From Moniliella sp. 'wahieum' (lineage: Eukaryota), in the NCBI GenBank assembly GCA_003971905.1, contig RSEE01000028.1, forward strand, positions 434,001 to 498,000: 64,000 nt of DNA, read 5' to 3'. The notes below the pieces were generated by a model, which had not been told where the DNA came from, did no database searches, and saw nothing but the letters and a program-made list of their open reading frames with translations. Below, one piece after another: positions 3,958 to 56,017 of the stretch. Position numbers and translations under genes: made by a program. Numbering within the stretch: position 1 is the stretch's first letter; each line of letters starts with the position of its first letter.

Positions 3958-4179
3958 AGCTTGAAGCTTGACTGGCTTTGCCTGTCATGCACACGTTGGA
4001 ACCCTGAAATTTCAAGTCCAAGCCGCCCCGCGTAAGCAATACATCACAGGATCACCTCAGACCTGGCATGTCACATGTCACAGCGGGGTGGCCGCGGCGG
4101 AATGCAGGATGCGACGCGTCGGAGCAGGCACAGGGCAAGTGCGTGGCGGTGCGCCTCAACGCTGATGCATGATGCATGA
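3958..4179. repeat. 7-bp TNA+palindrome arrays upstream of SCC2
   Basis: AGCT-TGA-AGCT-TGA (3958-3971), CATG-TCA-CATG-TCA (4067-4080) and TGA-TGCA-TGA-TGCA-TGA (4163-4179). Confidence 0.85.
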
Positions 4180-4734
4180 TGGGGGGATGCGCGGACGCGG
4201 GATGGGCATGCAGGATGCAGGATGGGACGCGGGACGGGACGGGACGCGAGGCGAGGCGAGGCGCGTCGCGTGCAGCGGAACGCCCTGCGGACACCCGCTC
4301 TGCACAGACGCACAGACGCAGCAGACGCAGCAGACGCAGCAGACGCAGCAACCGCAGCACCGCAGCACCGCAGACGCACCCCACCCCACCCCCTGGCAAC
4401 TGCCGCAATGCCGCCGTATCCGTCGCTGGCGCTTCCGTCGGGGCGCAAGGAGGCGCGGCAGCATGCTGCGACGAGCGTGTGCGCGCCGCCGCTCGCAGAT
4501 GCGCAGTGTCCTCTCTGCTGCCCGCGTCCAGGGCTTTGGCCCTCCCGACCGCCCTGCCCGCCCCCGCCCCGCATTCACCCGCGCCTCGCGCCCACCTCGG
4601 CCGCCGCCCCGCCCGCTGCGCCCACCGCCACGCCCATCGTGCCTGGCGCGCCCATGCCCACGCACACACCAGGCCCCCCCACCCCCCCCACCCCCAAACG
4701 CATCCCCCTCCCACCCCCCCCCCCCGCGTCCCTC

Positions 4735-7700
4735 ATGCTCGCCGCCCCGCCGTCACCGGTGGCTTCTACGGCCCCGCTGCCACTCCCTCTTCCCGCGCCA
4801 AGCGCCCCATTAGCGCTACCCCCCGTCCACTGTCTCGCCCCCCGCCGTCCAAGCGCCTCCGCCCGGCCGACGGCCACCGCAGCAGTGGCAGTGGCACCGA
4901 CTCCGACTCCGACGAGGACGAGGAGGACGAGGGCCTGGGCCTTGGCACCCTTCTCCGCTCCGCTCAAACACGTTCGACACCATTGAATGCGCGTCACCCC
5001 CCAACTCCTTTGCCGCAAGCACAAATGCCCGACTCGGACGCTACCTTCGCCCCTTCGCCCCTCCTCTCTCCTGCCTCCCGCCCTCCCCGGTGCATTGAGT
5101 GAATCGGATAGTGACGATGGGGTCGGTCTTGGTGTCCTGGCTGCTACCTCTGCCTGTGTCTCGGATCCGCTCCTGCTCCCCGCCCTGCACGCAAGACACT
5201 TGCCACTGGAGGCCGCACTCGTCGCACGCCCGCCCCTACTAGTCCCGCATCTGGTCTCACCATCACCCCTACCCCCGCGGCACTTTCTGCTGTGCACTCT
5301 GGACCAAAGAGCGACCGTGACCCCATCTCAACCACAACCACCCGCACCAACACTGATATGAAAATCCCAAACTGGCACAGCCGCCGCCGCGTCGGCGCAT
5401 AAGCTCAGAGTTACGAACTCCTGCGCCTGCGCGCCTCAACGCGTGGCCGTATCTGATTCCGAGTCGGAGCTATCTGATTCTTATTTGGATCTTGATGCAT
5501 ATGAGGAGGAAGGGGAGGATGTGGAAGACGATCAGATCATGCTGCTTGGACCAAAGCGCCGCGGGGAACCTCGAACATCTAGGGTGACACGAGTACTCAA
5601 CCCAGCTTCAACATTACCTGCCAAGCGATTGCAAAAGGTACTCGATGATCTGTTTGAGGACGACGATTCCGTTCCCGTTCCCACCGAGTTGGCCCAATTG
5701 GCTGCCGCGCATAGACCCTGGACGAGTACTTGGCTCCACCACATTTCTGGCACCCGTGCCCGTGTTGTGCTCCGTCCTCACGCCGTCGTCCAACTAACTA
5801 AGCTTGTCAAGGCCGCAACATTGCCCTTTGCCATGCGAGCCGCCTCGGACGTGCGTGACCTTGCCACCCTCGAGTCGCTGTTTCCTCTTCCAAGGCAGCT
5901 GTCGGACCTCGACCCTAGCTTGCTCGCGCGCCTTGCCCGTATTCTTACCCGCACTGCCGCTGCGGAGGAGGACGATCCCGATCCCCGCCCACCTGCTATC
6001 CTCTCTTCTGGAGCCAAGGCGACTGGTGATGACGGAACCGAGACTCTAGATCTTGAGGCTGAGCGCAAAGAGGTGAGTAGATTTGCTACCCTCAGCGCAC
6101 TGCCTGCACTGCAGCCGAGTGCTTGCCACCCTCCTTCTGCCCCGCTCGTTCCTGCAAGCCTGTTGCGGGAGGATGCATTTACTTCCTCCCTCGATGCTGT
6201 CAAGTCCGTCTCAGAGTTACTTTTGCCCCTCACCGACTCGGCCACCCTCGCGACTCCTCCCACGATGCTGTCTTCTCGTTTCTTTGCATCGATAGCTCAG
6301 GATCTTTCTCGTTCTGCCGAAGCGGACTGGGAATCGCCCGGCTCCGAGGCAGCACACCTCTCGGCGGTGCAATGTGCAGCATCGTTGCAGCACCTCCTCT
6401 CCTCCACCCGCTCGGCCATGCGAGCCTTGGCAACTTTGCTCGAAACGGCACCCCTTCCTCCTAGTGAGCAGTGGCCATTTCTGCTTCCGATCTGGCCCTT
6501 ACAGCATTTTTCCTCCCTGCGGCAGACGACGAGCGGATCAACAATGAGGTCGCACCCAAACCCAAGTCTACCACCAAAGCCAAGGGGAAGGGGAAGGGGA
6601 AACCCACGAAACGGCGGGGAGCCAACACCGCTGATTTCCCGCACACTTCCTCGGCCGACTTGTGGAATGCGGTAGCCGATCCCAATGCACTCTCCCGCCG
6701 CCGGGCACCGGAGCTCTGGGGGGAAGGCATGGGGGGACCCCTCGCACCTGTGGCCCAGGCCGTGCTACGACCCTCTTTGCCCGCACCCCTTCCAGCGGGG
6801 TTGGATTGTTGATGAGTTGGTCAGCTCCTTGATTCGGTTCCCCCTCCCACCCCCGTCGCCGTCTAGGGATGAGAGTGTTTGCGAACCGCGAGCTCCCCAT
6901 GCCTCCTCCTACACCTCATTCAGGCTGCCGTTAAGATGCCGACGCTCCCTGACAAGGACGAGGAGGAAGAAGGCGAGGGTAGGAATCATGCCGAGGAGGT
7001 GGGCTGTCCCAGCAAGATCCTCCTCAGTTGGATGAGGGCAGGGATGGAACCGATCCTGAATCCTGCATTGGCGAATGCGCTTGACTGACCCCCTCGCAGG
7101 TCCCAAAGCTGTGGTGGGGGTAGTGGCGCGTGTGTTGGTGGGAAGGCTTCCAGTCTGTCCACCGCTGTGGACGCCCGGGGTGGAGAAGTACTGGCCTCGC
7201 TCGTTGCCGATGTAGGAGGATGCCTGGGTCAACGGCCTGGCCGGGGGCTGCAATGTTGGTTGAGCGTCTTCCTCGGCCCTTCTTGCTTTACTTCAGCTAC
7301 CCTCGCGCGCTGCATCGCCCCCTGAAGGCAAACTTCACCCCTCTTCGCGGGGCGGCGATCGATGTTTTAGCTCGCTTGTTAGGCAGTGTCTCTGCGGTGG
7401 AGTCTCGCTTAGCTCCGCTGTCCCCTCCCAAAGCAGCCGAGCCAGCGATCAAGGTGGTGTCTGGCGCATCTGCAGTCCCCTTGCCATCGGATGAGATGGA
7501 GGTGGACCAGAATCGGATCAACCCGAGAAAGAGGTACCCCCTTTGGAGCTGATGGACCATGGTCGACCAGCCTCTGAGCTTCCTCTCATCCGTCGATGCA
7601 GTCGAAGGCACGGTGCAGGCTTACGCCTATTGATTTCTTGTGGGGTCGATGCTCCACCCGTGTCTGCTCGCGAGGAAGCGCATCGGTTTTGGTTTGCCCA

Positions 7701-15300: not shown

Positions 15301-15413
15301 GTTAACCATCATCACACTTGATTGGCCTGCGGTGCACGCTCTACTGGGCATGTGCGGAGCAGGCGGGCCTTAGCTTGGGTCGGACCATCTTGGGTCCGCC
15401 GCAGCCCGTGACA
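15301..15413 (-). repeat. Truncated second LTR copy (first 113 bp)
   Basis: Matches 14620-14732 with 4 substitutions, all transitions. Confidence 0.9.
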
Positions 15414-15452: not shown

Positions 15453-15997
15453 TCAATATTCAGCACGCTCTCAGTCCTCCAGGCCTCAGGCCTCACGGGC
15501 CTAAGGCCTGGACACCCAGGACTCTTTCATGGACACCTAGGACTCTCCTTCTTCCATTATATCTACGATCTTGTGTGCTTCAAGCTCATTGCACCCTTCT
15601 GCTCTAGCCTCACACGTTTCATCATACTCTGCGTCTCGCCCGCACTGGGGCAGGCATTACAAACTGGCACGTACTATAGACAGACACACGTGCTAGCTAG
15701 CACACGTGCTGCACATCACAGGTACAAAAAACTATATAGTACAGACGTTTTATGATCACGAAATTCTACTACGACTATAGCGCTGCTCAGAACCTCTTTC
15801 TAGCTGTTGTCGGAGTACCGCGAGAGTGTATACTCAAAAGAGTCCTGATCACACCGTATTACTGATCGGCCTAACCGCCACCCATACGTAAACCATAACG
15901 TTGACCATTTCCTATAGTCTCTTCAATGGAGCTACTACTGTGGCTTCTAGCTCTCCTAGGAGGCCCTGAGGCCAGGCCTGTGACATGTGACATGTGA
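15453..15997. repeat. 7-bp TNA+palindrome arrays upstream of the RTA1-like gene
   Basis: TCA-ATAT-TCA (15453), GGCC-TCA-GGCC-TCA and GGCC-TAA-GGCC (15482-15508), TGA-CATG-TGA-CATG-TGA (15981-15997). Confidence 0.85.
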
Positions 15998-16903
15998 TGG
16001 TCCCTGCAGTGCCGGTGTATTGAGTGCTCAGCCTGTATAGTAAAAGGCACACAGGCCTCTCACCGGGAGACTGAGTACTACTATACCGGTAGACTGAGTA
16101 TACTGATGTACTCAGTGAAGCGCCTCCAATTATTAAAAAGTAAGAAAAAAGGGGGGTCTCGATTATATAGAATAGTAGTAGAATAATAGAGTTTAGATGC
16201 AGCGTTTCCCTGTCCCAGCCTTAAGCTCCGTCAATGATATGGATGTAGTATGGAGGTGTATCGTGAGCGAGGGCTCTCCGCCACTTGTGATTCTCACGTC
16301 TCGGACAAATGTCTTCGGACTCCTATGTTGCAGCACTTCCATAAGGGCAGCGACCTGTATCTATACGGCGCCTGATGTCCGAGACGTCCGACCGAGTGTA
16401 GAGTTTGTGTATATATTGTTTTGAGTACTGCCACAGAGTATATTCCTGCTTTGTGCCGATGACATCATGCATCGTGGTCGGTCATTCGATGACTACACTG
16501 TACGTGTGTCCATGCCATATATCTTTTGGGCATGCGCGTTTTATATATGCGTTTCCAGCCGATCTACCGGGCCGATCGACCCTTTCGCCTTCGCGACAAT
16601 CACATCGATTCTGCTTTCAGATGATCACTAGTCACTATCGTTCGTAGTCCCTAGTCCCTAGTTCCTAGAGTCATTACTGGTCAGTGGGTGATGGCGCTGC
16701 CCCGTTAAAATGTGTGCGACCTCAAGGTTTCCACACTCTCGCGGCGAGCAATATAAAAGACTTCCCTCCCAGTTGTCTATCACATCACACAGCCACTCGC
16801 CCATCTTCTCCGTTTCAATTGGCTTGCTTCAGCTTCCCTTCCTCTCTCTCTCTTCGTCGCACCTCCCTCGGCTTACTGCAACTTCCATCATGGGCGTATT
16901 CAG

Positions 16904-17998
16904 ATGTGGACGACTGCCATCACATCGATCCCACCCGGGGCCACCTGTCAGCTGGACAATGCACCATACGAGTACATTCCCACTCTCTGGCTGAGCATCC
17001 TCTTCACCGTCCTCTTTGGCATCCAGTTCATCCTTCACTGTCTCTTGGCACTTTGGCCCGGTCGATTCCGCCGCGGCGGCTTTATGCTGCTTGCCGCCAT
17101 CTGTGCTGCCGGCGAACTCGCTGGTTGGATCGCCCGTCTTTACAGTCACTTCAACTTCTTTCAGGTTGACCCCTACATTGCCCAGCTTGTATGCCTCATC
17201 TTGAGTCCTGTCTTCATCAGCGCGGCCAACTACGTGACACTCCAACGTATCATCTTTAGTGTTGGGACGGAGCTGACCCGCATTAGCACCAAGGTTTACA
17301 TTAGCGTCTTTGTCACGGGTGATATCATTTCCCTCGTTATCCAAGCCGTTGGAGGTGGTATGAGCGCTTCAGCTGATACTGACTCGGATGTACACACCGG
17401 ATCACATATTGCTTTGGCTGGTGTCATTATCCAGACACTGATTACGGGCCCCTTCCTTATCCTCTTGACGGATTTCCTTGTGCGCCACTGCTTGGCCTGG
17501 AGGGCCGGTCAATATCGCGAGCGCTGGACCAAGGGAACTATTCTCGTCGCATGTGCTTCACTCTTGTCTTCGATTTTCATCCTTATTCGGTGTGTGTATC
17601 GTTGCGTTGAGATGAGGCAAGGATGGACGGGCTATCTTGCGGTGCACGAGGTTTGGTTCCCCATCTTTGATGCCACCATGATCTTTTTCTCTCTTTTCGT
17701 CTTCCTTGTGGTTCATCCCGGCTTTTTCTTACCAATACCTTGGGCGGAACGAGGGGGGGATGAATCCTTCGTCATGGAGAAGCCAGATGACGCCAACGAC
17801 TTTTCGGAAGGGGAGTACGGAGGGTACCCGGAGAATCGTGCAAAGCCTCGCCGCAACACTCCCATCTTCCACCTACCAACAGCTTGGTTAAGGATGGGGA
17901 TTTGTCTACCGCATAAGCGAAACTTACTTCTCATTCAATGGCCGCTCCTCTCTGTTGGCCCTATGAAAATCGAAGAACCGCGGGTCCAGTACTACTGA
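16904..17998 (+). CDS. RTA1/RSB1-family 7-TM lipid-translocating exporter-like protein
   Basis: Motifs GELAGWIAR, PVFISAANY, GDIISLVIQAVGGG and IRCVYRCVEM..GWTGYLAVHEVWFPIFD, with multiple hydrophobic helices. Confidence 0.92.
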   Translation: MWTTAITSIPPGATCQLDNAPYEYIPTLWLSILFTVLFGIQFILHCLLALWPGRFRRGGFMLLAAICAAGELAGWIARLYSHFNFFQVDPYIAQLVCLILSPVFISAANYVTLQRIIFSVGTELTRISTKVYISVFVTGDIISLVIQAVGGGMSASADTDSDVHTGSHIALAGVIIQTLITGPFLILLTDFLVRHCLAWRAGQYRERWTKGTILVACASLLSSIFILIRCVYRCVEMRQGWTGYLAVHEVWFPIFDATMIFFSLFVFLVVHPGFFLPIPWAERGGDESFVMEKPDDANDFSEGEYGGYPENRAKPRRNTPIFHLPTAWLRMGICLPHKRNLLLIQWPLLSVGPMKIEEPRVQYY

Positions 17999-18390
17999 GT
18001 GTCAGTCGCAATTCCATGTATAATATGATTCTCCAGCCCGACGGTAGGGCCACCTTTACTGTCAAGCCTGCGCCTTGTTCATGCGCGGCAACAATCCACC
18101 TCTATACTGAGCCATACTAAACCATGAGCCATGAGCAGCCACTTTGCGTTCGATGCAGGAGGACATTTGTTCATCTAGCCGTTTGTGGCTGCGTTTCCTC
18201 TTTCCATTACATTACTTTTTACTCCATGATTCCAGTCTTGTCACAGGGTCTAAACGCACTCTCTCCACTTGTAATACAAGGCCACACATTTGCACAATCT
18301 ACGGGGTAAACATCCGAGGTGGTACGAGAGACATGTGGGTAGCTAGCAGCATGCGAGAGTAGTGGGAAGGTTCTGAAGAGGCAAGTGGGG

Positions 18391-19765
18391 CTAGTGGTCA
18401 CCAGAGTCACCCGACTGGACCGCGATGGTCTTCGCTGGGGCGGCAGGTATGCCAATGTGTTCTTGTTGGCCGGGAGAAGGGCCAACGTAGGTATAACCAC
18501 TCTCATGAAGAGGATTAAGACCAGCCTCGGTAGCGAGCTCAGCGTAAACTGGGTCGTCCTCGGTAGCTTCAAAGAACACATTTGCATGGGCCACTCTTCA
18601 GCTGCCCGGTCCTTGCGCAACTTGCGTTGCTCCTCTTCGATTCGCGTTTTGTCCTTGGACGCAGCGACATAATCCTGAGATCGAATCCCCTTGGCTGTCT
18701 CACTCCAAACTGTGCGTGATTCGCGAACATCCTCGAGCGCAGTAGCGGGGACAGTGACCAAGCGGCGCGTTTGCGCGTGGGCATCTGCATCCCAAAAGAC
18801 CGTGTCCTTCTCCATCGCACTGGAAGTACGTTGGTCTTGAGATACCTTGCTGACTCCGTCCCATGATCCAGCAATAAGAACAAGTGGGGCGGTTCCGGCG
18901 GCTTGAGCGGGAGATGCGTCCGCAGAGAGGGGCGCATACACTTCCGCATTGAAGCCGTGTGATGTACCGAAAAAGTAGCCCTTGCCCGTGTAGTGGATTT
19001 TAGTGGTATACCCGGAACTCGAAACGATCGTGCTCTCATTGACCAACTCGAGGTAGGGGCTCATATACCACAGCCCCTCAATGGCCACCTCGGGTAAGGT
19101 CAGAAGGTACCTCTCCTCCTCCTCAGTCCCGGGCACTCGGACTCGAAGTACCGCATGGCCGACCTGCCGCACCCGAATTGATCCCTTGGAGAAGGTAGTC
19201 TGTTGACCCGAATATCCCGTGACTGAGATGCCAGCCTGGGCATTGATAATATGATAGGCCGAGATGGGTGGGTGGTGCGAAACTTGCTCGGCCACCAGCT
19301 GGGTCGGTCCAGCCGTTGAGGCATCAGGATGGTCGGGTGCATCGCAATCGGGCGCATCAGGGTCGGCACTGGCAGGCCACTCACCCCGAAAGAGCTCGCC
19401 CAGAATGGGGTTGAGTGGTTTCTTCTCCATCCCTGAACGGTTGCGCGCTGTGTAGGCACCACGCAAAGTCGAGATAAACCAACGCAAGACGCACAGCATT
19501 CGTTCCGCCGGATCTTCCGCCTTGGCGATTGCAACTAGCTCCGATGGGTGCTCTCCCCAATAGGCAGAAAATTCGAGAAGCGAAACAGGAGGAGGATGAA
19601 GGAAGGTGCAGTTAGGGCGCTTAGGTCCCCCCGGAATGATGCGAGCGTGCCCAAAAAGCCTTCCATGTCGGCGCTTGCCCCGCAGTTTCTCCAGGCGCCT
19701 GAGCCGCAGAAGTTGGGGGAATGTCGGGGCTGTCAGGTGCTGGACGCCGGATCTGTAACGGACAT
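18391..19765 (-). CDS. KES1: Oxysterol-binding protein, Osh4/Kes1 type (frameshifted in assembly)
   Basis: OSBP signature EQVSHHPPISAY, plus EKKPLNPILGELF and SLLEFSAYW. The N-terminal TLASFRGDLSALTAPSFIL lies in an adjacent frame, and the C-terminus is in ORF 18391-18594. Confidence 0.9.
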
Positions 19766-20623
19766 GGCAGGGCAGAGAAGGAAAGTGGGAAATGGTGGTG
19801 TACAATAGCCTTTATCAGTCAAATGCCGCGTTGGCCGTCAAGACACGTTGAACCGATGCGGTGCAACAATCGTGGTGGATGCAGATGAGTGAAGAAGTGA
19901 AATTGAAGGGACGCCTTGGTGGACCGACCTAGTTTGGGTAAACTTGGTTGAGCACGTTGAGCGCGTCGAGCAATGAGCAATGCGGGATGGACTTTCAAGA
20001 GGGTCGGTTTGGTTGTTGGGGGAGCGCCGCGATGGTGCTGGTGGTGGAAAGAAGGAGGGCGGGGAAGCGCTTGCTCTTGGACTATATCATAACCCGTCCC
20101 AAATGATCATGCCCTTGCCAACCCTAGGCCCACAAAAGATATCAAGCCAACTCTAGCACGTGCGCAGCGTGAATTTTTGGGACAGTCACCTAGTTACTCT
20201 AGTTACGTCGACAAGCCAGTACTCAGTGCTCCTAGTAGTACACTCAATGGGCACGCTGGGCTGTTGGTCTTTCATCTGTTTCGTCCAGTAGTGGCTCACT
20301 CTCAGTTCTCAGCCTCAGCCCTTGAGGCCTCATGGACTCATGGCCGCAAGGGCCCATGGGCTCACGGCCTGGCGGTGTTACGCCTTATGTACCGTATCGC
20401 CAGTACCAGCACCATCTACCACTTCTCCGTCCAGACCGGGGAACTACGTACATCGAACCTGTGTAGTGGAAATGGGCGCTGAAACGCCACACCACTTGCC
20501 ATTGAAAAGATCAGTCAAAGCTTGGGGCAACTGGCTGCGTTCGGTTTCACCGGCTTCACCGGCTCCATAGTATTCGCACGGGGAGTACAAGTAGACGAAG
20601 GACGGCCAAAGGGTGCGACCAGA

Positions 20624-23403: not shown

Positions 23404-24369
23404 GATGAAAAAGCGGGGTGAGAAGAGGGTGAGGAAGAGAGGTGGGTGGTGGATCGATAGACAAAAAGGTGAGAGGAAAGGAAAGGGCTGGCTTTTATAC
23501 CCAGGCTGCTTGCTGTTGCTCGCTGGGGGACGATTCGGCTTGTCTCGTGTCTTCCTACCACGACGTCAGCGCGTCAGCGCAGCAGCCTCGATAAGATGGG
23601 CAGCGTGGCATAAGCCAGGGTCGCCGAATATCTGCCTCCCCGAGCGAATAAGGACAGGTTGCTGCGCTGATGCGCTGATGCCCTGATGGATGATGCGCTC
23701 AGCGGCTCACGCGTGCGCTCATGGCTCAACGCCGCTTTCAGCTGGCCTCCGTCGCTGACGGTACGGTGCGTGTGACGCATGATGGATGGTGCATGATGAC
23801 ATGCACCATGCGTCACGTGTCACGTGCTGCATGTCACCAGTTTGGCCTTAGAGTCCACACTGCCCTGCTGCGGGGGGCGAGCTTGGCTGTGGCGGGCGAG
23901 GAGCACGGCGGTGGGTTCGCCCTGGTGTGCCCAGGCTGTCGCTGTCCCCCTCGCCGCAGGCCACCCTAAGGCCGAATGTGGACTGTTTTGAAATAGAAAC
24001 TTACACCTCCAACTTCAAACCCAGCCCGCGGCCGGCACCGCGGCTGTGTTCCCCCGTGCACCGACGCGGCTGATTTTTTTCACCGCCGGTTTCGCTGCAT
24101 TCGGCCCGCCCGCGGCACTTGCTGACCCTCCCTCCTCTGTGGTCGACATCGCGTTGCCGCTTGCGCCAGGCTGAGCCTCAGGGCCTCAGCGCGCTCGAGC
24201 GCTGACTCTGAAATTTGGCGCCGCCAGCGCGATGGCCAGCGTATGGGATGCGGGCACTTTGAAACCAATCTGCTCCGGCGTAATGAAACCAAGGTGCATG
24301 AGTGTCTCAGCGGAATGGCATGGTGCATGGGTGAGGTGTCACGCTTAGCTAAGCGCGTAGTTGGTAGAC

Positions 24370-24875
24370 TTACATCTTAGATCTTAGATCTTAGAGCTCC
24401 CTGAGATCTGACAGCAATTTAAAATTTGATGCAGATTCAATATTCACCGGTCACAGATCACCGGTCACCGATCACGCATTGTCAGCCACTTGCATGTCAC
24501 ATGTCACATGTCACAGCGCCCAGGATATTGACGTCATTGTTAATCACGGACGGTATCGCGAGGCGTCTGTAGTTGGGCAGACAACGGTGGGTGGGATGGA
24601 TACCTTGGCCCTTGTCCGGTTGGGTCTTTTCGTCGCGCTTGGTATATGGGGAGTGGGGCTAGAATGTGCTAGATGGAGGACCGCGAGGGGAGTGTATACA
24701 GTACTGCCTCATCAGTATGCAGTACCATCGCATATCTTCACGATCGTCCACCAGCGCCTCTGTGGGTTTGGGCGCCCACAGTCAACATAACTGCTTCGTT
24801 TGCCGATCGTCGATCCATCGATCATCAGTGCCAAGTGACAGATTACTAGTTACTAGCTTTACTAGTTACTAGTTA
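24370..24875. repeat. 7-bp TNA+palindrome arrays in the GPD1 / tRNA-lipase divergent region
   Basis: (TTA-GATC)n at 24370-24393, six TCA in 7-bp phase at 24437-24474, (CATG-TCA)3 at 24493-24513 and (TTA-CTAG)n at 24843-24875. Confidence 0.9.
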
Positions 24876-25246
24876 CTGGCCTCTGTGGCATCCACAACCT
24901 CTCTCACCAAACGTGTCTTCACAATTAACAACTGCTATATGTATATGCCCATGTCACGTCAAACTGTCACAGGCCTAGCTAGCGATGCTGGCGATGAGGG
25001 ATGGAGATGGCATTCAAGAGCTAAGGAGAGCTAGAGCTATGGATTCTGTTCCCGAAGAATGCGGTTTGGAGAAGGTGTCTGCGTCTGATTATATGTAGAG
25101 AGTAAGATCAAGTGCAAGTGTGGAGCTAACAAGACCCTCGACCACTCGATCCCCCTGCCCCCATCTGCAGTTGATGATGTGGTATATACTGAGGAATCCA
25201 TACGAAACAGTGACGTATTTATCAATGCAGAGAAGACCCCACCACT

Positions 25247-25345
25247 GTCGGGTTAGCTCAGATGGGAGAGCGTGAGATTGAAGCTTCTTCAATAGCAGAT
25301 CCTCTGGATTCCTCAAGGTCCCCGGTTCGATCCCGGGACACGACA
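25247..25345 (+). tRNA. tRNA-Phe(GAA) with ~25-nt intron after position 37
   Basis: GTCGGGT/ACACGAC acceptor stem, D arm TAGCTCAGATGGGAGAGC, anticodon GAA at 25280-25282, intron ~25284-25309, T arm CCCGG-TTCGATC-CCGGG. Confidence 0.9.
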
Positions 25346-28658: not shown

Positions 28659-29114
28659 GATGGCAACGGTGGTGCAGCGTGTCCCTGCCTCCTCGAGCCT
28701 TCATCTTTTTCTCAGCCAGGGGTCAGCCGCCGGTCTGCGGGTCGGCCAAGCTCATTGAATCATGGTTGAGAACACGTTGAATGGCGATCATCGGTTTATC
28801 ATTAACGCCGGCTCATCCCAGGCTGTGGGGATGGTACATGGATGGAGGCAGGATACATGGAATGGCCGATGTGAGCTGCATAGAAGCGATGGACAGCGCC
28901 TGCAACGGTAGAATGGTATATCTAGGCCCAGTGTGGAGAAGAGTACCGAATGTTTTAGGCGCCACCAGCCACGGATCCATGTGAAAATGTGCCAGCACAC
29001 ACTGCCCTCATGCTCGCGAGATGACTTGGTCCGTGCCCCAGCCAGTGAGCTCGACATGCCGTGGCGCGTGACGACGCGTGATTCGTAAATGGAGGGCGCA
29101 AACAAGGGCTTCCT

Positions 29115-29142
29115 TCAAGCTTCAAGCTTCAAGCTTCAAGCT
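29115..29142. repeat. (TCA-AGCT)4 heptamer array upstream of the Bap31-like gene
   Basis: Four perfect units, about 200 bp before the ATG. Confidence 0.95.
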
Positions 29143-29343
29143 TTCTTCGGGGCTCAGCGCACCACAGACCTAATGGCCTCAAAGTCACTAATCAGCGTTC
29201 GGCACAGCCGCCAGCGCGCCAGCCCGCAGCCCCGCTGGCCGCGCATGCACAGGTTTCAATCTCAATTCCCGCTGCCGCGCCGCTTCTTTCTCCCCCACCA
29301 CCACCTTCCCTCCACACTAGGTGTTGTGCCGACTGTGCCCGCC

Positions 29344-31970: not shown

Positions 31971-32886
31971 CTCCTTTGATGAGACCTGGAGTCCTGATGG
32001 TCCTCGAGGGTGATGCAATCGCACTGGTGGTGGCGGTGGTCTAGAACCAAGCAACACCTATACAGAGGAACATCAAGCAGCGAGTCGCCATACCAGGGGC
32101 TAAGCTACGGAACAAAAAGGAAAAACAAGAGAGAGAAAACAACGGAATTCCCAGACCTGAGAGGAACTGAAGAGACATTGGCCAAAGCACGAGCCGCCGA
32201 TGGCTCAACATCATTCGCTCATACGATCTGTCCGGCGTCTGCTTTGCTCCGTACGTCTTTGTGTTGAACAACGTTGATGCATTGCTGCGATGCCCCGAAA
32301 GCTAACCAATCGCTAATCAACTAATCGCCGGGCGCACCTGAACATACTGAGCAAGACGATTGCAACATTGAACACCGGTGTCGAACGCGCGGGCGCCCCG
32401 TGCCCGGGCCGGCTCAAGCGCTCAGGCGTTCGGGGCCTGGCCGCCACAGGCACAGGGGCACTATAGGCGGCTGGCCCACACTCGGTACTCACTGGATGAG
32501 GCGCATGCAGATTGCAGAGCATTAACGGTGCCCTCAGGGCCAGCAGCCGGGCAGTCTCCTGCCCGCCCTGCAGGCTAAGCGCTGACGCGCTGACAGCGCT
32601 GATGCGCTGACGGCAGAAGTACGAAGAACAGCGCATCACTGGCGCCATGCCCACCTCGAGCTGTCGCACTGGCTGCGGTTGCTGCAGGGTTCCGTCGGCG
32701 GTGCACGCCGGGGCGGAGTGGGGCGGGGCGCATGCAGGGTGGGACACTGGCGCCACGCGGGCTGCAGCTGCTCCACCCCCTTGCATGCAGGCCCCGTTGC
32801 TCAGTCCAACTGCCACGCCTTCGGCTGGCCCTGAGCACCACCACTCTTCCTCCCCTCCACATCCGAGTTGGTGCCGTCGACGAGCA

Positions 32887-37332: not shown

Positions 37333-38926
37333 TGACCGGTGACCGGTGACCGTTGTCACCACGGCGGAGTTACCATATCAAGTGTTGAGCGCGTCAACAC
37401 TGCCTCAACGCTGAGTCTCAGGGCGGAGATTTTTATATGGTTTCCACTCTCTATTCCCTCTGTATATATGTTGATCGATGATCGGATACTTGGTACCCGG
37501 TACAACTGTGTGGTAGTCGACAACCCTCTGTACAGTAGTAACAACAATAATGTAATACGTGAGACACGTATAGCTCTCTCTCCGCTCGTGATGCGTGATG
37601 ATGTTACGCGTGATATGACGAAGTGGCCGCATGCGTCAGATTCATCCGTAGTAATTGAAGACGTTGCTACCGTTGATTTCTATCAATTGTGATGCCAGTG
37701 ATTTGGCAGTTGTCCAAAAGTAGATAAGATTGTGTGGTGCACATCATAGGCGCGAAATAGTCGGCGATGATAGATGAAGTCGATGAAGATGTGTCACAGT
37801 CGGGGCTAAGGCGAGGGAGACCAAAATCGGACTAGGCCAAGGGGTGTAGCAATCGTTCGTGGGGAAGAAGCAAGACAGAGGACATGGTGCGAAGTGGAAG
37901 AAACAGGGAAGGAGCGAGACGCTCGAGACGAAGACATTGGAAATGGGAGCGAGATCAGCCAAACTATGACAAGGTGCTTAATGCTTTTAAAGATTTTGCA
38001 CTATATGTTGGCCAACACACTCATTTTGGCCCTCGGTGCTTTTTGATGCTGATTGGTATAGATCCTATTCCAAGATATGGCGAGCACACACTTCTCTGGG
38101 TCGCCTTGTAGTACGGTGCAAGACTCGCTACATGACAACAATCGTAATTGGACCCCCCAGAACAGCTTACTTCGAAAAATCGCCATAAGATCTAAGAGCT
38201 GATAATATGCGCTGCCAGAAATAATCTATTGCTATGTCGCGTGACGTGTGACGTGTGACGTGTGACGCGTGACGAGAGATGGGGGGTGGTGTTGCATGTT
38301 GGGGTCTTTGAAGCTTGAAGAGAGGCAACCGGCGACCGATCTCCGCCCAAGCAAGCGTGGAAGAACCTAACGCCTCCAAGACACCCGCACTCAGCCATCG
38401 CTCGAGACCTGTGCTCCATCTGTAAAACAAGCTGCCTTTCAAGCCGCCGGGGTGCATCATGCATCATGGATCATGCATCATGCACCATGCATCATGGATC
38501 ATCGATTTGATCATCAATATCTCAATCGTTAATTACTAATCGATAACAATTCACCAGTCACGTCACGCGTCACGCGTCACCTGTCACAGTGTCACAGGAT
38601 GGGCCGTGGCGCGTGGCACTGGCGGCCAGCCTCCCAATTCACGGGTTTAACGTTCCAGTCCACTGGTAGTATGCCATAGTGGGCTTTAGTGCATTCTTAA
38701 CCGGGAGAAGGTAGCCCTAGTATGCGCGCTAGTCGGTGCCAAGTATTTAACGTCACGCGTCACACGCCAGGCCTCAGGCCTCAGGGACGCGTCAGGCAAT
38801 CGATAAGCGCTGCGCTAAGCGCTAATAAGCCTGGGTGGTAAAAGTGTTTCACTTTTATCGCCACCGTCGCTGGGGGGGTAGTGTGCGGGCGAATGTCTGT
38901 AGCCTTTAAATTTGAACGTTGAACGT
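37333..38926. repeat. Cluster of 7-bp TNA+palindrome arrays upstream of the MFS gene
   Basis: (TGA-CCGG) 37333-37349, TGA-CGTG/CGCG 38238-38272, (TCA-TGCA) 38453-38505, TAA-TCGA-TAA 38537-38546, (TCA-CGCG) 38563-38579, (GGCC-TCA) 38770-38783, TAA-GCGC-TAA ~38816 and TTA-AATT-TGA-ACGT-TGA-ACGT 38906-38926. Confidence 0.9.
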
Positions 38927-40883: not shown

Positions 40884-41612
40884 ACGGGGTATTCGCTTTA
40901 CATGTGGCTATATCTCCATGTCCTCACACTGTTGATACCACCGCGGCTGTGTGCACCTTTCTTATATATGATCCGTTGGCTTTTTCTGTTATTGCATGCC
41001 ATGGATTACATCGAAAGACTGAGTACTCAACGGAAGAGTACTGAGATGTGATACTTTATTAGTGTTGTGTGTTTGTGGACCTGCTGTCAGTTTGGCAGTC
41101 GCGTTACCGTCATTTCCTCACTTCTCCCCCCTTTTCTTTTGACCTCAGAAACTTACATGTATATACTGCAGCTTGTTCAAACCCTCAGGTGGGAACAAGG
41201 CACAAGGGTTTTTAGTATACGTAAACCACTATCATCACCATTGGATCATTAATCTACTTTTCTCCACTGACAGCGGGTGCCGCCACCCACAAAGGCACAG
41301 AACATGATGTCTGTTGTTGTTGAGAGAGCCGACGGGTATAGAATAGCGCCACACAGAGGCGACGCGTGGTCAGCTACATGCATGATGGCGCTGACATGTA
41401 TCCACACTTTCCGAGTCTCAACAGTTGACTTGGATGAGGGATAGGAATGGCCGTTGTCCCATGTTTCCATGTATAGGCGCTAACTGGTCATGAACGAGCG
41501 ACATGAGCAACGTGGGGCCTGCAGTCGATATTCCGTTCTTATAGTGATGACGCGTTGATGCGCGCTGATGTCAAATTTAATTCCGTCTTCAAGCTTGCGC
41601 AGCGCGCAGCCT

Positions 41613-41650
41613 TGAAGCTTGAAGCTTGAACGTTGAACGTTGAACGTTCA
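41613..41650. repeat. Heptamer array TGA-AGCT x2, TGA-ACGT x3, TCA, upstream of GH55
   Basis: Perfect 7-bp phase with a core switch, about 100 bp before the ATG. Confidence 0.95.
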
Positions 41651-47205: not shown

Positions 47206-49163
47206 AGTTTGACGGGCGATGAGAGAAGTATAGAGTGGTTTTGTCAATATCGTTGACGTTCTATACATGCGTTCACATATACGAAGTGAAGGTCATTATA
47301 TATAGCCACACTGCATTCATTAACCATCTGCTCCGCTCTTACATCTTTACGGGATGAATTCACGGGCTCTCCCTTCGAGACGTCTACAGCACATGTTTTT
47401 ATGAGCGAAGATGGTTCAATGAGATAAAATGGCCGACTTCCATATAGCAGCATACAGTTTATGTGGGGATGCTACAATCAGAGCCCCTCCGATATTCCTT
47501 TCCAAGCGGTATGCACACGTTTGCGCTAAACAGTGGAGAATGTATTAGCTCGGAGGGCTCGACTGCAAAAAGTCAAAAAGGAAAGAGTCGGAGCTGGAAG
47601 AGTCCTGTATAACGCCGTAGATCTCTTTCCAAATGGTCCTTCTGTGGACCCGGCCTGTCGTGTGGGCCTCCACCATACATTATAACGTGCATTATTCACG
47701 TGTGTGGCCTGTGAGATCCGGGATACGCCTGTCGACCCCGTATACTTTTGGTATACAGGAGCCCGTGGACCTCATCGAAGAGCTTTTTCACCAACATAAG
47801 TGTACTCTCTCGATCACTCTCGATCATCGACGATATCATCTCGATTGCTTGTTCGTGATACACGCGTCTTATGAGACGCGTCTCTTAATGAGGGTCCTCT
47901 CTCCCTCTGTGTTCCGTTATCGACTCTGCCTCTCCCATACAAACGTGTAATACCCTGCATCGGTGTGTTGTGCAAGCCAAAGAAATACACCACAGTTCGC
48001 TGAAGCTTCATCTGAATCCTGCCTGATTATTCCATCATGGCGTGCTTCCTTCATTTGTTGCGGTAGTTACTAGTTTATCGATCCTGCTATTCCGAAAGAG
48101 TAGGGAAAAAATGTATAGCCGCACTAGCATCATGCATCATCATGCATGATCTTCAATATATCAATTCTTGTGCGTTTTGATAGCTCTCCGTATACCCCAC
48201 CCGTCTAACGTTTATACCTCCTGCCGTCACGCGTCAGTCTCATGATCTCATACCGCCGCGAGTCAAAGCGGGTATAACAGCAAACGCAAGAAGCTTTGTA
48301 TTGTGTGCATGTGGAGCTTCAAGCTTCAAGATTAGTGCTAGTGGCTGGGACCTGGCGTCCGGGACCGGTGACCGGTGACCAGCATATCATATCGCCTCTC
48401 CTGTTGTCTAATAGCCGATTATCGCCGACAAGGCGTGCTGCCTTGAAGCTTGACATGTGCATGACGGAAGGTAGGAAGGATGGAGCTTGGCGTGTGCAGT
48501 ATGCCATTTGCATGGCTCTCCTTAGATCTCACGCAAGGATACTTTCAATGACATAAGGCAAAACCGCATAATGTGTTTGCCCCGCAGTGCCAAACGCGTC
48601 TTGGTCTATAGATATAGCCGAGGAGACCATCTTGATGCTTCTACTGATGTGCTGAGGACACATTCGTCAGATATAAGAAACGACGCTCAGATGCACCCTC
48701 TGGTATAAACCTAAGCTGTCAGCACTCTATAGCATTACCCGGCCTTGGCTCGCCGATGTTCACACGCCACTGCAACCATCTGCGATGCCCTCCCCGAGAA
48801 CTGTGTTAATATAGGGCCAATCTTGGGTTGACCCGAAGACGCAATGGCGCAACTCAATAACGGGTTGCATCTCTGTGCACATGTTGACCTAATAACCGCA
48901 GGGTTCCCTTTCAGGGCGATTGCGAGCCCGCGTCTGCCGTGGTGGATGCCATAAGCTTATTGGAGCTCCATGTCAGCGGCGAGTAGAAGTCCGACATTTG
49001 GATGCAAAGAACGCTGGGGGGGGTTTTCCTCGTCTCCCGTATCTCTCCAATCTCTCTTGCGTAGAAGTATATTAGAGAGCTGCCATATCGCATGCCAGCG
49101 TTTTCCTCCATCCCCCGTCCACATCCTCAAGAACCATTACCCGTTGCCCATTCCCCCACCACT

Positions 49164-50563: not shown

Positions 50564-51158
50564 ACGTTTCCGCTGGGCAACCATCAGGGACGTCTGTGGG
50601 TTCTGGTTAAGTATGATATATGATTGGTGATGTGCGTGGGAAACGGAGCAAAAAGCTGGTTCTATAGGATGTAGCAGTGTGGCCGTCTCTGTAGAATACT
50701 CAGAGAGCAGTTTCGCCTGTCGAAACCCCGAGGGGGGGAAGGTTGGCCATAAAGAGGCTTCTCTCACTTGGCAGTCGTCTCTTCCTTACATTTAACTAGC
50801 CTAGCTGTCTCTCTACAGAGACCAGGGATGGGCGGACAAAGATGAAGAGCCAAGAGAAACGGGCTTGCTGGCTCAAGGGGTGGTTTGCAACACATTTTCT
50901 TATTAGTACGGAATGGATCTACGTAGCATAGATGGCAGGCACGGTGCACCAGCGTCGCAACCGAGAACAAAACGCACAAGTCGTGAACTGTCGCAAGATC
51001 GGGACCGGTGCGGCCCAAGCGCCAAAATTAAAGCACTGAGACGTGACATGTTGGATGCTATCAAGCGGGACGAGCAAAGAGAGGGAAGAAGAGCCAAGCG
51101 AAAAAGTGTTGAGCTACTCAACTTGTAAGGAACTGGGGCGGCTTCCATGTCGGCTCTC

Positions 51159-51161
<3 letters not shown>

Positions 51162-51189
<28 letters not shown>
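51162..51189. repeat. (GA)n microsatellite
   Basis: About 14 GA units. Confidence 0.95.
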
Positions 51190-51190
<1 letters not shown>

Positions 51191-51589
51191 GACAGACAGG
51201 CTGCACTAAACTCGGCTCTGTGACAAATTGGTTCACCACCAATCGCCCTTTCTTTGCTGGGCTGAGCGCTCACGAGCCCTGCAACACGGCAGCAGGGGTA
51301 GAATTTCTACATCTCGACGCCTTGGCTTTTGGCGCGCTGCAAATATTGGCTTCCTTGACAAACGTACCATCTTACAAAAACAATCAAACAAACAAACAAA
51401 CAGACAGACCGACAGAGTTGGGGAAATGGCCGATAAACCGTTTCGCATCGTCTACCACGTGGCGGTGCGTGGATGCGAGTAGGATGATTGTAGAGGGAAC
51501 ATGTCGTATGCTTCAAACTGGGCGGAGACGGGTGTGGAGGGTAGCAGGAGGGAGAGGAGGGTGGGGGAGAGAGCAGGATAGACGTGAAG

Positions 51590-53023
51590 ACGATGGTATA
51601 CCAAGATACCTCAAATATGCGGTCATATGCGACAAAAGGCGACTGGCTGACAAGACGGGCGAGAGGGGATGCGGTACAGAACGGTGCGTTGGCGAGCAAG
51701 ATCCCAGAGGGGAAGAGAACTATCTACCCGAACCGAGCCAGCACCCTCAACGACCGAGGACAGACAGGCAGGGAACGTACCCTGCTTCTGACCCGGTGGT
51801 ACTTCTCCCGAGGAAAGCTACCGTGCCAGTTGCCACGTACTCTTATTCCATGGGAGAGACCGAGGATCGCTCGACAGGCGTGAGGATGCGTCGACGCGCA
51901 TTGATGAACCAATTGGAGATCTGGTTCATGCTCAGTCCCGTTGTTTCGCACAGGTGGCGCTTTCGTCCTCGGTGGGGTAGGGGTGGTTGACATGGTCCAG
52001 CAACCAGGTGCGAAGCAAGTCCGTTACTTCCTTGGGAAGTTTGCCGCGTCGCTTGACGATCGACGTGCGGGAGGAAAGGGGGGGAGGGTACATGTGAGAA
52101 GGCGGGAATCGCGGTGGGGCGCCTTCGGCCATGCCAGCGAGGGCGGGCAAGGGTTCCTTGGGACTAGGCCGGGCGGTAGGATGGGGTGAAAGGGCCGTTT
52201 CCCTCTAGGGCGGGGCGGCGAGGGCACACGGGCATAGGGATGATGCCGCACACCAGGACCCACATCCCTACTCTGGCTTGGGCGGGCAAGCCCATCACTC
52301 TCTGCGTTAGAGGAGCGAGGCGAAAGAGTGTGCACAGTGGTTGTCAAAGGGTGGGCGGCATCGTGCTCGCATAGATACCCGGTGGCGGGGGTACGTAATT
52401 GCCATACCTTGGGTCGAGGTAGGCAGCGTTCATCGCAGGCCCCTTGGGGCCATCCAGATGGGGCGGGAGATGGCTCGAGGGACTCGGGATAGTAGTACCT
52501 GCAGAAGCTGGGGCATAGGGAGGCGATTGCGGTTGGGCTTGGGGATAGGAAGCCACCGCCTCGCTCGCATCTGCTTCACCCGGGGCAGGGGTCGCGGCTG
52601 TCTCGCGGGTACGGGTACGGCGGCGGTGCCTGGGACGAAGGATGGGGCACATAGGGCGCACTAGCCTGGCGCGGGCGTCAGCGGCACCCCTTCCTTGGGC
52701 TGGAAATGCGAGCGGAAGAGCCGGTGCAGTAACCGAGTGAGCACGGGCATGTTGGTGGAAGAAGTCGGTGGGGAGGAACTGGTCGATGTAGGAGGATGCC
52801 GGGTAGGCGCTGCTTGGACGAAGGCAGGGCCGAGAGCGAGGTGCGAGGGCCGCGCGACGACGGATCTGCAGCGTCCGGGCCGGGTGGGGAGTCCTGGCTG
52901 GAGGAGAGGGGGGCAGAGACAGGCGGCTGGGGCGGTTCTGGGCGGCGAAGACAGTGGCGAGGCCGGGCAGAGGCAGGCGGGGCGGAGGCGGGGAGGGGGG
53001 GGCGCACTGGGGGTCGAGGCCAT
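51590..53023 (-). CDS. TALE-class homeobox transcription factor (Cup9/Tos8/TGIF-like)
   Basis: KRRGKLPKEVTDLLRTWLLDHVNHPYPTEDE, continuing across a 1-nt shift to LCETTGLSMNQISNWFINARRRIL at ~51890-52060. Pro-rich N-terminus. Both ends approximate. Confidence 0.9.
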
Positions 53024-53625
53024 GTCGGCCGTGGGCGGCTGTGGGGAGATGGTGGGGGCAGGGCAGGTCAGCATGTCTGCAGCGAGGCGGGGAGAAGGGG
53101 AACGAGAGACGGCGGGCGGCGGGGAGAGACGTACGGCGACACAGGACATGGAGGGTGATGGGGCGGAGAGGGGCGGAGGCGGCGGGAGCAGCGGAGGCGG
53201 AGGTGGGGCCGAGGCAAGCAGGCAGGGCAGGGTGGCCAGCAGGCACGAGGGCGTGCTGGGTCCAGACAGGGTCCAAGGCCAGGGCGCCGACAGCGCAGCT
53301 GGGCAGGCGGGCGCTGTGCGTGCCTGGCCGGCCGGAGCGCAGGCAGCAAGCACCGCAGCCCAGCCGCCACGGGGGCAGTCGCATATGCACATGCTCTTCG
53401 ACCGATCATCGATCCATGAGCGATCCAAAGACGACTCTAGGCAGACGCACGCTCTGTGCACGCCCTCGCACCCTCCGCTGCACTCCCCCTCGCACCCCCT
53501 CGCAGCAGTGCTTGGCAAGCGCTGTGCCCGCGCTGCGTTCGCGGTGCGCACAGCCGGCCGCACAGCCCAGCCACTGCCCTGTGCCTCGCGATCACCCGGG
53601 GGCGCCTGGGGTGGCACGGGACGCA

Positions 53626-56017
53626 TGATGCATGATGCATGACGAGCGACTAGTGACTCGTAGTGATCGTGGTGGTGACATGGACATGCAGCAGGCGACA
53701 GGCGACATGCGCCAGGCGGCAACAGGCGGCAACCGGCGCAGGCTGGCATCTGGCCCCAGAGGAGCATGTTGGTGCACACAGCTTTGCCAGCGCAGCTGCA
53801 TCCCACCTCCTGCATGGCCATCGGCGCACCGAGCACCGAGCATCCCAGCCTCCCCTCCCGCACTGGGCCTCAGCACCAGTGTGCGGTGGCACCTGTCACA
53901 TGTCACATGTCATGCATCATGCATCTTGTAACATGTGACACATGCTCCGACAGGTGCGCGTGACATGCACACGCGCGACATGCGACAGCGCACCCTAGCG
54001 CCCTCCGCCCCCCTGCCTGCCCCCTGCTCGTCCTCCTCTGCTCTCCTGCCGCTGTTGCAGCGTGTTTGCCCCATGCGGCATCTGTTACGCGGCAAGTATG
54101 TACCCCGGGCTTGAGGCGGCCGGCTTGAAGCTTGACGCGTGACGCGCGTGACGCCTCAGCCTGAGGCTCACCTGAGGCCTGAGGGATTAATGATCGATGA
54201 TGTTGTCAGTGTGCGTGATGCAGATGACATAATGCATGATGCTCAGCTAGATAATCGATAACTTCGATAATCGATAACTAGAACTGGCGCAAATCGGTGA
54301 CGCGCACGTAACAAGTAACGCGTACACAGTAATCATAGTAGCCGGGTAGCCGGTATCCGGTAATCGGCACCCGGCTGCTCAGCCTGAGCGGCTCAGCGCG
54401 CGTCCCAAACAACCGGTAAGCATCAAGTGTTCAGGGTGTTATTTACGTGTTCAGTTGAACTTGAACGTTGAGCGTACGTTGACGCATTAACGGGTTGAAC
54501 GTTGAACGTTGAACGTTGACAGCGTCCATGGTTTCTGCGTCCGGAGTTCCACGTTCCACGTTCAACCGAACGTTCAACGTCCCCAGCTGTTGGGAGTATA
54601 GCACACCTGCGGTCAAATCCACCGTTCCCTCCACCATGCGCCATGCTGTTTCGGGGGTAGGATTGGACGTTGGGGTTGGCTACTTCAGTCACTAGTCACA
54701 CATGTTAGTCACAGGAGCCTAACTAGTAACTGGTAACTAGATGTCTGGCTGTGACATGTGACACATGTGACATGTGACATGTGACATGTGAGCCGCCGCG
54801 AGCGTGAGGCGTGAGGCGTGAGGCCAGCGCGTTATAGGCGCGGAAGCGCGCCCTGAAGCTTGAAGCTTGAAGCTTGACCCTAGCTATAGCTTTTGCCCGC
54901 CTGAAGCTTGAGAGTTTTTGAGCCCTACATCAGTTTATGGTTAGGCGCAGCGTTTCTTTGTCCCAGCCTTACGCTTAGGCGCTTAAGCTCTGTAGATGAT
55001 CGATAATAGATGAGACTGAGTACTGAGTTCAGAAGTACTAACTAACAACTTAAAAGAACGCGTCATGACGAGTGACGTGACGTGGCCGTGACGTTGATCA
55101 TAATAAAGGAGGTGATAATTATCCGTGGCGCTCTTCACAGGCAGGCTCAGACCTCAAGGTATATCCGCAAAACCTGGCCATCGATCATGATCGCAGAGGC
55201 ACAGGTGCGGGAAGGCAGCCCAGCCATGGCTACTCTGGACCTCGCGTGTCTACGACCGCTGTTGAATATACGCGGAGTAGGGCCGCCATGTATCAGCTGA
55301 CACATCGGATCCCAACATGCAATCCTCCTCCCTCAAGTAAGCGGGTGATTTCTTGAGCGGAATGTAGCACGATCACTAGCATGGTCACTATAGCACTCAT
55401 GAGTATATGATGTGTACCCTGATAGTATCCCACCAACTGACGGGGCCGATGACATGCATGGCCGGGTGGTGTATTCGCCCGTTCTGTCCCGGGCTGCGTT
55501 GGATCTGAGCGGGGCCCGTCCGTGACACTTTCTTTGATTGGAAGTTCGACAGCTCTCCTGGGTGCCACCACATTCTGTAGCCAATATATGAGTATCTCCT
55601 CAATTAATTGAAATTCAAGTACCTGTGAGTCCGGAGTGTTCCGACTGCACCACAGGCCTCATTCCATAAGGAAACAACCCTCTCCCCTTCCCCTTGTCTT
55701 TACTGGTCTTAGCGCCTTAGCATGTTAGCGCTTAGCCCTCCCGCGACAGTGGCCCAGATGGGAAGCGTTTCTGGCGAGATTGCTGGAACAGCAAAAAGTA
55801 GTAACAAAAACCCACCCGCCGGCGCCCCGAGAGCTTTTTGATGTAGTAGCCAGAAGGACAGACAGGTTTATGAGACCCCCGAGACGGGAGAGGCCGAGGC
55901 CAGTGAGGGAGAGGCCTCGGTGAGTACGCGTGGCCAGACAGGGGCATGCCAAATTGATATCACACGCTGATGGGATTGACCGCTTATCCATTTAGTTTAA
56001 CGTTTAACGTTTAACGT
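53626..56017. repeat. Dense cluster of 7-bp TNA+palindrome arrays upstream of the homeobox gene
   Basis: TGCA 53626-53642, CATG/TGCA 53896-53923, AGCT/CGCG 54126-54146, GGCC 54173-54182, TCGA 54252-54277, ACGT 54496-54519, CTAG 54720-54740, CATG 54752-54791, AGCT 54854-54877, GTAC 55017-55026 and TTA-ACGT 55997-56017. Confidence 0.92.

Follow-up and report, generated by a model that had tools for sequence, protein, structure and literature searches.

How can many short tandem arrays in one stretch of DNA obey a common structural rule without having a common sequence? This question is raised by a 64-kb stretch of contig RSEE01000028.1 (hereafter the window, the whole stretch of DNA that was analysed and the one on which all window counts below rest). 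It contains arrays with a period of 7 bp, built from units that join T-N-A, where N is any base, to a 4-bp palindromic core, so that each unit holds a 6-bp A....T palindrome plus one nucleotide. An earlier note on this DNA had described about 30 such arrays. Every coordinate that it named bears a unit of the kind described, and its estimate is a fair one: exact period-7 runs that reach 15 bp or more number 37, and an A....T 6-bp palindrome is present in 26 of them. Period-7 rows are also numerous in the Tandem Repeats Finder output for the window.

The rule is highly specific. There are 50 exact period-7 arrays with two or more units, compared with 3.8 in 30 order-4 Markov simulations, and 35 of the 50 belong to the class 'A....T palindrome + 1 nt', for which the simulations give 0.17. 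Other palindrome classes contribute one C....G array, one G....C array and no T....A array. With 15 of the 50 arrays off-rule, other 7-mer tandem repeats are not equally abundant. No period from 4 to 11 other than 7 has a comparable excess of the palindrome class; period 9 has two arrays based on 8-bp palindromes. When the string TNA-pal4-TNA (pal4 being any 4-bp palindrome) is counted with the same N on both sides, the window contains 86 matches against 2.9 expected (100 simulations), and the remaining 15 flank pairs lie near expectation, the highest being TNG with 18 against 5.5 simulated. Enrichment with TNA flanks is found at a core length of 4 only, because lengths of 0, 2, 6 and 8 give 56, 10, 2 and 1 occurrences against 54, 7.4, 0.5 and 0.15 simulated. 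Both comparisons proposed in the earlier note, of palindromic cores and T/A flanks with a Markov background and of period 7 with other periods, thus come out as it had supposed.

What the arrays share is this rule and not one sequence. Fifteen of the 16 palindromic cores are found between two TNAs, at fairly even frequency: all 14 cores listed in the earlier note are borne out, its total rises by one with TATA at 50614, and TTAA is the sole core with no occurrence between two TNAs in the window. The middle base of TNA is identical on both sides of the core in 86 of 110 TNA-pal4-TNA cases. Counted by locus, N is G in 42, C in 40, A in 15 and T in 11, with no strand or orientation bias (TGA 42 versus TCA 40), and 80% of runs have G or C in this position, close to the 67% among the TNA sites that unmasked intergenic DNA offers (P = 0.025). 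N thus mirrors the sites available and is almost unconstrained, which leaves T and A as the only fixed bases. The idea that TGA and TAA are present as stop codons in all frames is ruled out by the equal frequency of TGA and TCA. Once period-7 runs are masked, neither single A....T hexamers (213 versus 207 expected) nor single y'x'TNAxy heptamers (167 versus 173 expected; primes denote complements) are enriched. The absence of enrichment outside runs indicates that the signal is the product of an event, not a favoured word.

The ends of the arrays show a structure that the earlier note had not described. For the 66 period-7 runs containing TNA-core-TNA we measured how far periodicity continues past the outermost TNAs. 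Of the resulting 132 ends, 46 extend by 0 nt, 18 by 1, 38 by 2, 10 by 3, 12 by 4, 3 by 5 and 5 by 6. The commonest combination is (0,2), with 15 runs, in which one end falls exactly at T and the opposite end lies two bases inside the next core; (1,2) and (0,3), with 8 runs each, are expected to be (0,2) plus one chance-matching base, and (0,0), (2,2) and (1,1) account for 6, 3 and 1 runs. The commonest array form is consequently (TNAxy·y'x')n·TNAxy, of length 7n+5. Examples are a TGCA array with TGA linkers at 4163-4181 and a CATG array with TGA linkers at 15979-15997 (both n = 2), and an ACGT array with TGA linkers at 54494-54519 (n = 3).

This form can be restated as a 5-bp direct repeat, W = TNAxy, with a 2-nt spacer that is the reverse complement of xy, the end of W. 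The string consisting of W, that spacer and W again is observed 108 times against 0.6 simulated, and spacers of 0, 1, 3 and 4 nt (9, 5, 1 and 2 cases) show no independent enrichment. The two bases preceding the first TNA differ from y'x', so that a plain 7-bp tandem duplication, with its minimum of 14 periodic bases, does not describe the arrays. Instead, the cores appear to derive from the two bases next to a TNA site.

A second feature that is new relative to the earlier note is the chaining of different cores in phase. When A....T hexamers are paired with others of a different core, the distances between them peak at 7, 14 and 21 bp (10, 9 and 8 pairs, compared with about 2.5 at nearby distances), and there are ten independent different-core junctions. 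In three of six array junctions compared, the paired cores differ at all four positions, which means that one core is not a mutated copy of the other. The rule thus acts above the level of unit sequence: different palindromic hexamers are chained in one 7-bp phase. These mixed chains follow a scheme in which a pq-TNA-xy site bears q'p'pq units leftwards and xyy'x' units rightwards. At 41611-41650, for example, AGCT units (×2) run leftwards and ACGT units (×3) rightwards of a single TGA (site CT-TGA-AC); at 24435-24475, ATAT is followed by CCGG on one TCA (AT-TCA-CC); at 53894-53925, CATG ×2 is followed by TGCA ×2 (TG-TCA-TG); and at 54123-54146, AGCT is followed by CGCG ×2 (CT-TGA-CG). AATT is followed by ACGT at 38906-38926, and an AGCT unit abuts a CATG unit at 48442-48453 (CT-TGA-CA). 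By eye, five of six mixed chains have one outer boundary 2 or 3 nt past the outer TNA, and in these five both cores match the two flank dinucleotides of one TNA. Duplication of a 7-bp palindromic target (y'x'TNAxy doubled) was rejected as a source of the arrays, being broken by the mixed-core chains and having only the three (2,2) runs.

Our favoured reading, to which we give slightly less than an even chance, is that the arrays are scars of a lineage-specific and stereotyped event at TNA, either break and fold-back repair or a transposase-like reaction, with some slippage added. It is suggested by the flank-derived palindrome, by the placement of this palindrome between direct repeats and by the presence of the same N on both sides. 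The event would take place at T-N-A where intergenic DNA is open and contains promoters; some transposases duplicate symmetric 3-bp sites such as TNA. A single event would insert 7 bp by repeating TNA and the two adjacent flank bases (W), with the reverse complement of those flank bases, y'x', between the copies, to give TNAxy-y'x'-TNAxy. The core xyy'x' would be palindromic because in it the flank dinucleotide is followed by itself in inverted orientation, in the manner of P nucleotides when a hairpin or fold-back is opened or copied, and we infer that the product arises at a staggered break through a hairpin or fold-back step. The same TNA could be used towards either side, so that two unrelated cores would be chained in a single 7-bp phase. 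Further events at the same site, and some ordinary slippage once at least two units are present, would lengthen the arrays. The fixed T and A, with N free, would be the only sequence requirement of the maker of the break or fold, for which a transposase-like enzyme or end-joining polymerases are candidates.

Period-8 arrays (TNA plus five bases, for example TGA or TCA, GCGC and one extra base) occur at 23564-23580, 23663-23699 and 32579-32612. They fit a 6-bp direct repeat with a 2-nt inverted spacer and are possibly a variant of the same event.

Several points weigh against the scar reading. The 64 kb show no transposon and no transposase domain, and among the 25 longest of 106 inverted-repeat pairs in the window there is no transposon-like pair of terminal inverted repeats or miniature inverted-repeat transposable element, the top pairs being inverted pairs of the arrays themselves. 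No transposon superfamily is known to us that makes a 5-bp duplication beginning TNA. A 2-nt cut to one side is not obviously the work of a symmetric enzyme acting at TNA, and hairpin opening usually leaves P nucleotides of variable length, where here the length is strictly 2. The mirror product, with a spacer derived from the TN end of W, shows no enrichment of its own (9 cases, mostly degenerate overlaps), and 20 of the 132 ends, about a fifth, extend by 4 to 6 nt and so do not fit. Contraction of a longer array could be an alternative source of the 12-mers, we have derived no complete step-by-step reaction for exactly this product, and the evidence comes from a single window.

A rival to the scar reading is hairpin-assisted replication slippage as the sole cause, in which chance 'palindrome + 1' seeds would expand through slipped-strand hairpins with one N.N mismatch per unit. 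The earlier note had seen in the arrays the logic of hairpin-forming (CNG)n repeats, and the fold geometry is as it described. Seven arrays that we folded are each predicted to form a 5-bp stem closed by a TNA triloop, followed by one N.N mismatch and a 6-bp stem, with TNA as the loop of every fold. The arrays share with (CNG)n repeats a self-complementary unit, a single N.N mismatch per unit and the capacity of either strand to fold; they differ in their period of 7, in having no more than about 7 units, in accepting any core and in forming mixed-core chains. The arrays are short, however, and their folds weak (−3.2 to −10.5 kcal/mol; z-scores from +0.55 to −3.7); three of the seven are equalled or bettered by 21 to 129 of their 200 dinucleotide shuffles. 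When all 256 'palindrome + N' heptamers are folded as 27-nt arrays, C....G units reach −10.1 kcal/mol, G....C units −9.8, and A....T and T....A units −7.2 each. Because C....G and G....C fold better and T....A equally well, stability cannot explain a rule restricted to A....T, the class that supplies 35 arrays against 1, 1 and 0 for these three. An expansion of units according to hairpin stability, as would be expected of (CNG)n-type repeats, is not what is found in the window.

The remaining evidence on slippage is divided. Some arrays show multi-unit duplications of the kind that slippage leaves, as in the TGCA array with TCA linkers at 38453-38502, where variants of the 7 units repeat in a 28-bp pattern, and at 24444-24475, where the period is 14. 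Off-rule derivatives have also reached 2-3 units. Among them are period-7 arrays with TCC linkers and the palindromic cores CTAG and ACGT, at 16645-16662 and 54546-54563, which look like one-base derivatives that reached 2.6 units and suggest rule-independent slippage after array birth. On the other hand, there is no similar enrichment at periods 5 and 9, the unlike cores of mixed chains cannot pair and yet stay in phase, and slippage does not yield a length of 7n+5 in which one boundary falls exactly at T. By our own arithmetic, generic 12-mers of the form W-2nt-W should number about 60 by chance, yet off-rule arrays make up 15 of the 50. We therefore consider slippage alone distinctly unlikely. 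The hairpin analogy holds for geometry but not for cause, given the weak folds, the mismatch with stability, the unpairable mixed chains and the flank-derived boundaries, and the earlier note was right that ordinary slippage is insufficient to account for period 7, palindromic cores and fixed T and A.

Transposons could in principle leave a similar mark. If elements of the PIF/Harbinger type duplicated a 3-bp TNA and left classical excision footprints (target-site duplication, xy, y'x', target-site duplication) with two terminal bases from each end, each core would represent one transposon family. In 86 of 110 cases the symmetric 3-bp TNA is indeed duplicated with an unchanged N, the filler has a fixed length of 4 bp, re-insertion at TNA would add in-phase units, and such elements prefer promoters. 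But 15 of 16 cores at near-uniform frequency would call for about 15 families that between them cover every possible terminus, the match of a core to the adjacent flank dinucleotide is unexplained by transposon termini, no element is seen in the window and Harbinger excision is reported to be mostly precise. Loci with the same core are also unclustered (5 versus 3.9 within 150 bp, P = 0.34), so that this sign of locally hopping transposon families is absent. We regard this explanation as very improbable.

Other known reactions share parts of the product. According to the portion of PMC5499845 consulted, hAT, Transib, RAG and Mutator-like element (MULE) enzymes make the flanking DNA form hairpins, and footprints remain after end joining. 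Transposon excision footprints and V(D)J coding joints, as presented in that portion, resemble the window arrays in that target direct repeats surround an inverted copy of flank sequence, and in both cases a break site is turned into a small palindrome. The window arrays differ in lacking an element, in having a repeat that spans 5 bp from TNA with filler of exactly 2 nt on the side away from TNA, and in stacking events into arrays. P additions of variable length on either flank, expected of hAT, Transib and MULE footprints, are not found in them; variable-length footprints were rejected on the grounds of the 4-bp-only cores and the strict 2-nt spacer.

Alternative end joining also produces short direct and inverted flank copies. 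In the sections consulted of the respective papers, synthesis-dependent end joining mediated by microhomology (SD-MMEJ) yields templated direct and inverted insertions (PMC2943611), and some repair polymerases, among polymerases theta, eta and lambda, carry out stem-loop synthesis starting at two terminal base pairs (PMC11292364). Such fold-back synthesis from minimal pairing is comparable to the event that we propose. The products described in those sections are heterogeneous and follow experimental breaks, whereas the window contains one stereotyped product, at T-N-A and fixed in the germline.

The arrays are concentrated between genes. Nine intergenic clusters, making up 13% of the window, hold 78 of the 86 TNA-pal4-TNA matches, whereas open reading frames (ORFs) supported by Pfam make up 18.6% of the window but hold only one. 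The clusters include the divergent spacer between a dehydrogenase and a lipase gene and spacers upstream of the UNC-93, pectate-lyase-like, TauD, Bap31 and amidotransferase genes. No arrays are present in the sole well-supported convergent spacer (17995-18222). The link to promoters is suggestive, since the gene map is approximate and codon bias is too weak to fix gene ends firmly.

This distribution bears on a further suggestion of the earlier note, selection for a structure- or shape-read cis element. As considered here, the arrays would be selected promoter elements of a cis-regulatory or chromatin kind, read by shape, dyad symmetry or 7-bp-phased T.A contact and acting, for example, as nucleosome-excluding or factor-loading arrays. 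Their location in divergent and tandem spacers upstream of genes, their absence from the convergent spacer and the fact that many are perfect copies all fit such a role, and one core with its linker matches what we take to be the MluI cell-cycle box consensus, ACGCGTNA. Yet 15 cores at similar frequency are beyond any one sequence-specific protein, and the arrays lack the conserved recognition sequence that characterizes arrays of transcription-factor sites. There is no strand bias, single units are not enriched, and cores copied from the flank are not predicted by selection. The convergent spacers that the argument needs are, moreover, few and short, and they are drawn from the approximate gene map. 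Selection thus fits location and purity but explains neither the interchangeable cores nor their derivation from the flank, and we think it unlikely as the origin of the arrays. Vinces et al. are said to have described, in 2009, unstable tandem repeats in yeast promoters. These are reportedly also short, tandem and concentrated in promoters like the window arrays, but they are of an ordinary, mostly AT-rich type that obeys neither a palindrome rule nor a flank rule.

Heptamer repeats elsewhere do not follow the rule, among the matches listed in two controls to which this limit applies throughout. In metagenomes, a scan for three TGA-A[S][S]T units gave at least 121 loci, the cores of which are mostly the non-palindromic ACCT or AGGT. 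In the 18 examined among the loci with palindromic cores, the flanks contain no second palindromic array core, although one locus has a single CGCG 10-mer. No relative of this fungus was among the loci listed. Three listed metagenome loci, L035 (2647 bp), L023 and L047, carry dense TGAACGT/TGAAGGT heptamer arrays, 15 of period 7 within 2.6 kb in L035, and all three show one unit family with point variants and no multi-core rule. In prokaryotes, taking one genome per species, a scan for five TGAs in 7-bp phase gave at least 129 loci. None of the 236 distinct TGA-phased 31-mers among the listed matches is all-palindromic, and palindromic cores account for 8 of 944, below the 1 in 16 expected by chance. 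Strings of the form TNA-4-TNA-4-TNA have both cores palindromic in 24 of 39 cases in the window, compared with 1 of 887 in the prokaryotic matches listed.

With so few palindromic cores in the prokaryotic stretches, bacterial heptamer repeats are different in kind from the window arrays. Bacterial heptamer simple sequence repeats (Rehm et al. 2015, PMC4692102) share a period of 7, an intergenic site and many units per genome, but the prokaryotic matches listed show that such units are not palindromic and follow no TNA rule. That the rule is not displayed by the listed prokaryotic and metagenomic heptamer arrays favours the lineage-specific generating process put forward in the earlier note. 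We found no description of the rule in the full-text literature, including searches with two-unit strings of six arrays, in a collection that covers few subscription journals and so is not proof of novelty.

A stronger version of the scar reading is possible but doubtful: that this lineage has an undescribed activity that repeatedly breaks promoter DNA at T-N-A and reseals it with a fixed, flank-copied 7-bp signature. The enzyme responsible could be a domesticated hairpin-forming transposase, or the activity could be an unusual end-joining or fold-back polymerase step. If so, the arrays would be a natural tally of break events and a new, sequence-independent route to microsatellites, and they may secondarily shape promoter chromatin. 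Microsatellites are usually thought to be born from chance seeds and to grow by slippage. Here a whole repeat family is defined by a structural rule, with cores apparently written from the local flank, which would imply a specific break-repair or transposase-like reaction that leaves a readable germline scar. If confirmed, this would be a new mutational signature, a handle on fungal hairpin or fold-back repair and a possible source of rapid promoter variation, and the combination of a run length of 7n+5, TNA and a flank-derived palindrome would provide a computational marker for other genomes.

The other arrays of the window illustrate the range of cores and linkers. Near its start lie two AGCT units with TGA linkers (3958-3971) and a CATG array with TCA linkers (4067-4082), followed by a GGCC array with TCA (15480-15495). 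Around the mixed chain at 24435 are a GATC array of 3 units with TTA (24374-24395), a CATG array of 3.3 units with TCA (24493-24515) and a CTAG array with TTA in two runs (24843-24877). An AGCT array with TCA linkers at 29113-29143 has 4.4 exact units, and a CCGG array with TGA lies at 37333-37352. Further along, GGCC with TCA (38768-38785) and GCGC with TAA (38812-38825) are followed by TGCA units at 48127-48149 and by an AGCT/TCA array and a CCGG/TGA array within 48315-48380 (48315-48330 and 48363-48380).

Beyond these lie a TCGA array with TAA (54250-54277), CTAG with TAA (54720-54740), a CATG array with TGA that has 5.7 units and one 2-bp indel (54750-54791), AGCT with TGA in 3 units plus a final TGA (54854-54877), GTAC with TGA (55015-55028) and ACGT with TTA in 3.6 units (55995-56019). 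A CGCG array with TCA is found at 61419-61433.

Arrays with the same core are often paired in inverted orientation, a TGA-type array being followed by a TCA-type array 30-850 bp away. Such pairs are 53611-53657 with 53895-53941, 38247-38277 with 38558-38588, 23559-23588 with 23656-23685, and 54493-54514 with 54546-54567. In the first, the TGCA array with TGA linkers at 53623-53642 has its inverted partner at 53910. In the second, four TGACGTG units, the core of which is one base off a palindrome, end in a TGACGCG unit (38241-38274) and face the CGCG array with TCA linkers at 38561-38580. Next to the latter, at 38582-38597, an 8-bp unit occurs twice and contains the 7-bp interrupted palindrome CACAGTG.

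The window itself is eukaryotic nuclear DNA, with interrupted ORFs that match fungal families: RTA1, oxysterol-binding protein, Med7, glycerol-3-phosphate dehydrogenase, secretory lipase, Bap31, UNC-93/MFS, a pectate-lyase-like protein, FMO, TauD, ALG11, class-II amidotransferase and PTPA. The oxysterol-binding (KES1-like) ORF at 18222-19811 on the minus strand has at most 52% identity to any named protein and 71% to one assembly-derived protein. Its best named matches are all from Ustilaginomycotina (Tilletiaria, Violaceomyces, Melanopsichium, Pseudozyma and Malassezia). On the basis of these matches and their low identity, the source is probably a deep-branching Ustilaginomycotina fungus, of a lineage that appears to be poorly sampled. 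Within the divergent, array-rich spacer that separates the dehydrogenase and lipase genes there is also a tRNA gene (25247-25345, Rfam score 43.6 bits), which at 99 nt is long enough to leave room for an intron. Low-complexity DNA outside the rule comprises a 9-bp repeat present seven times and a C-rich tract of about 50 bases (4305-4367 and 4589-4725), together with a (GA)14 repeat and a run of 23 G residues (51162-51189 and 57308-57330).

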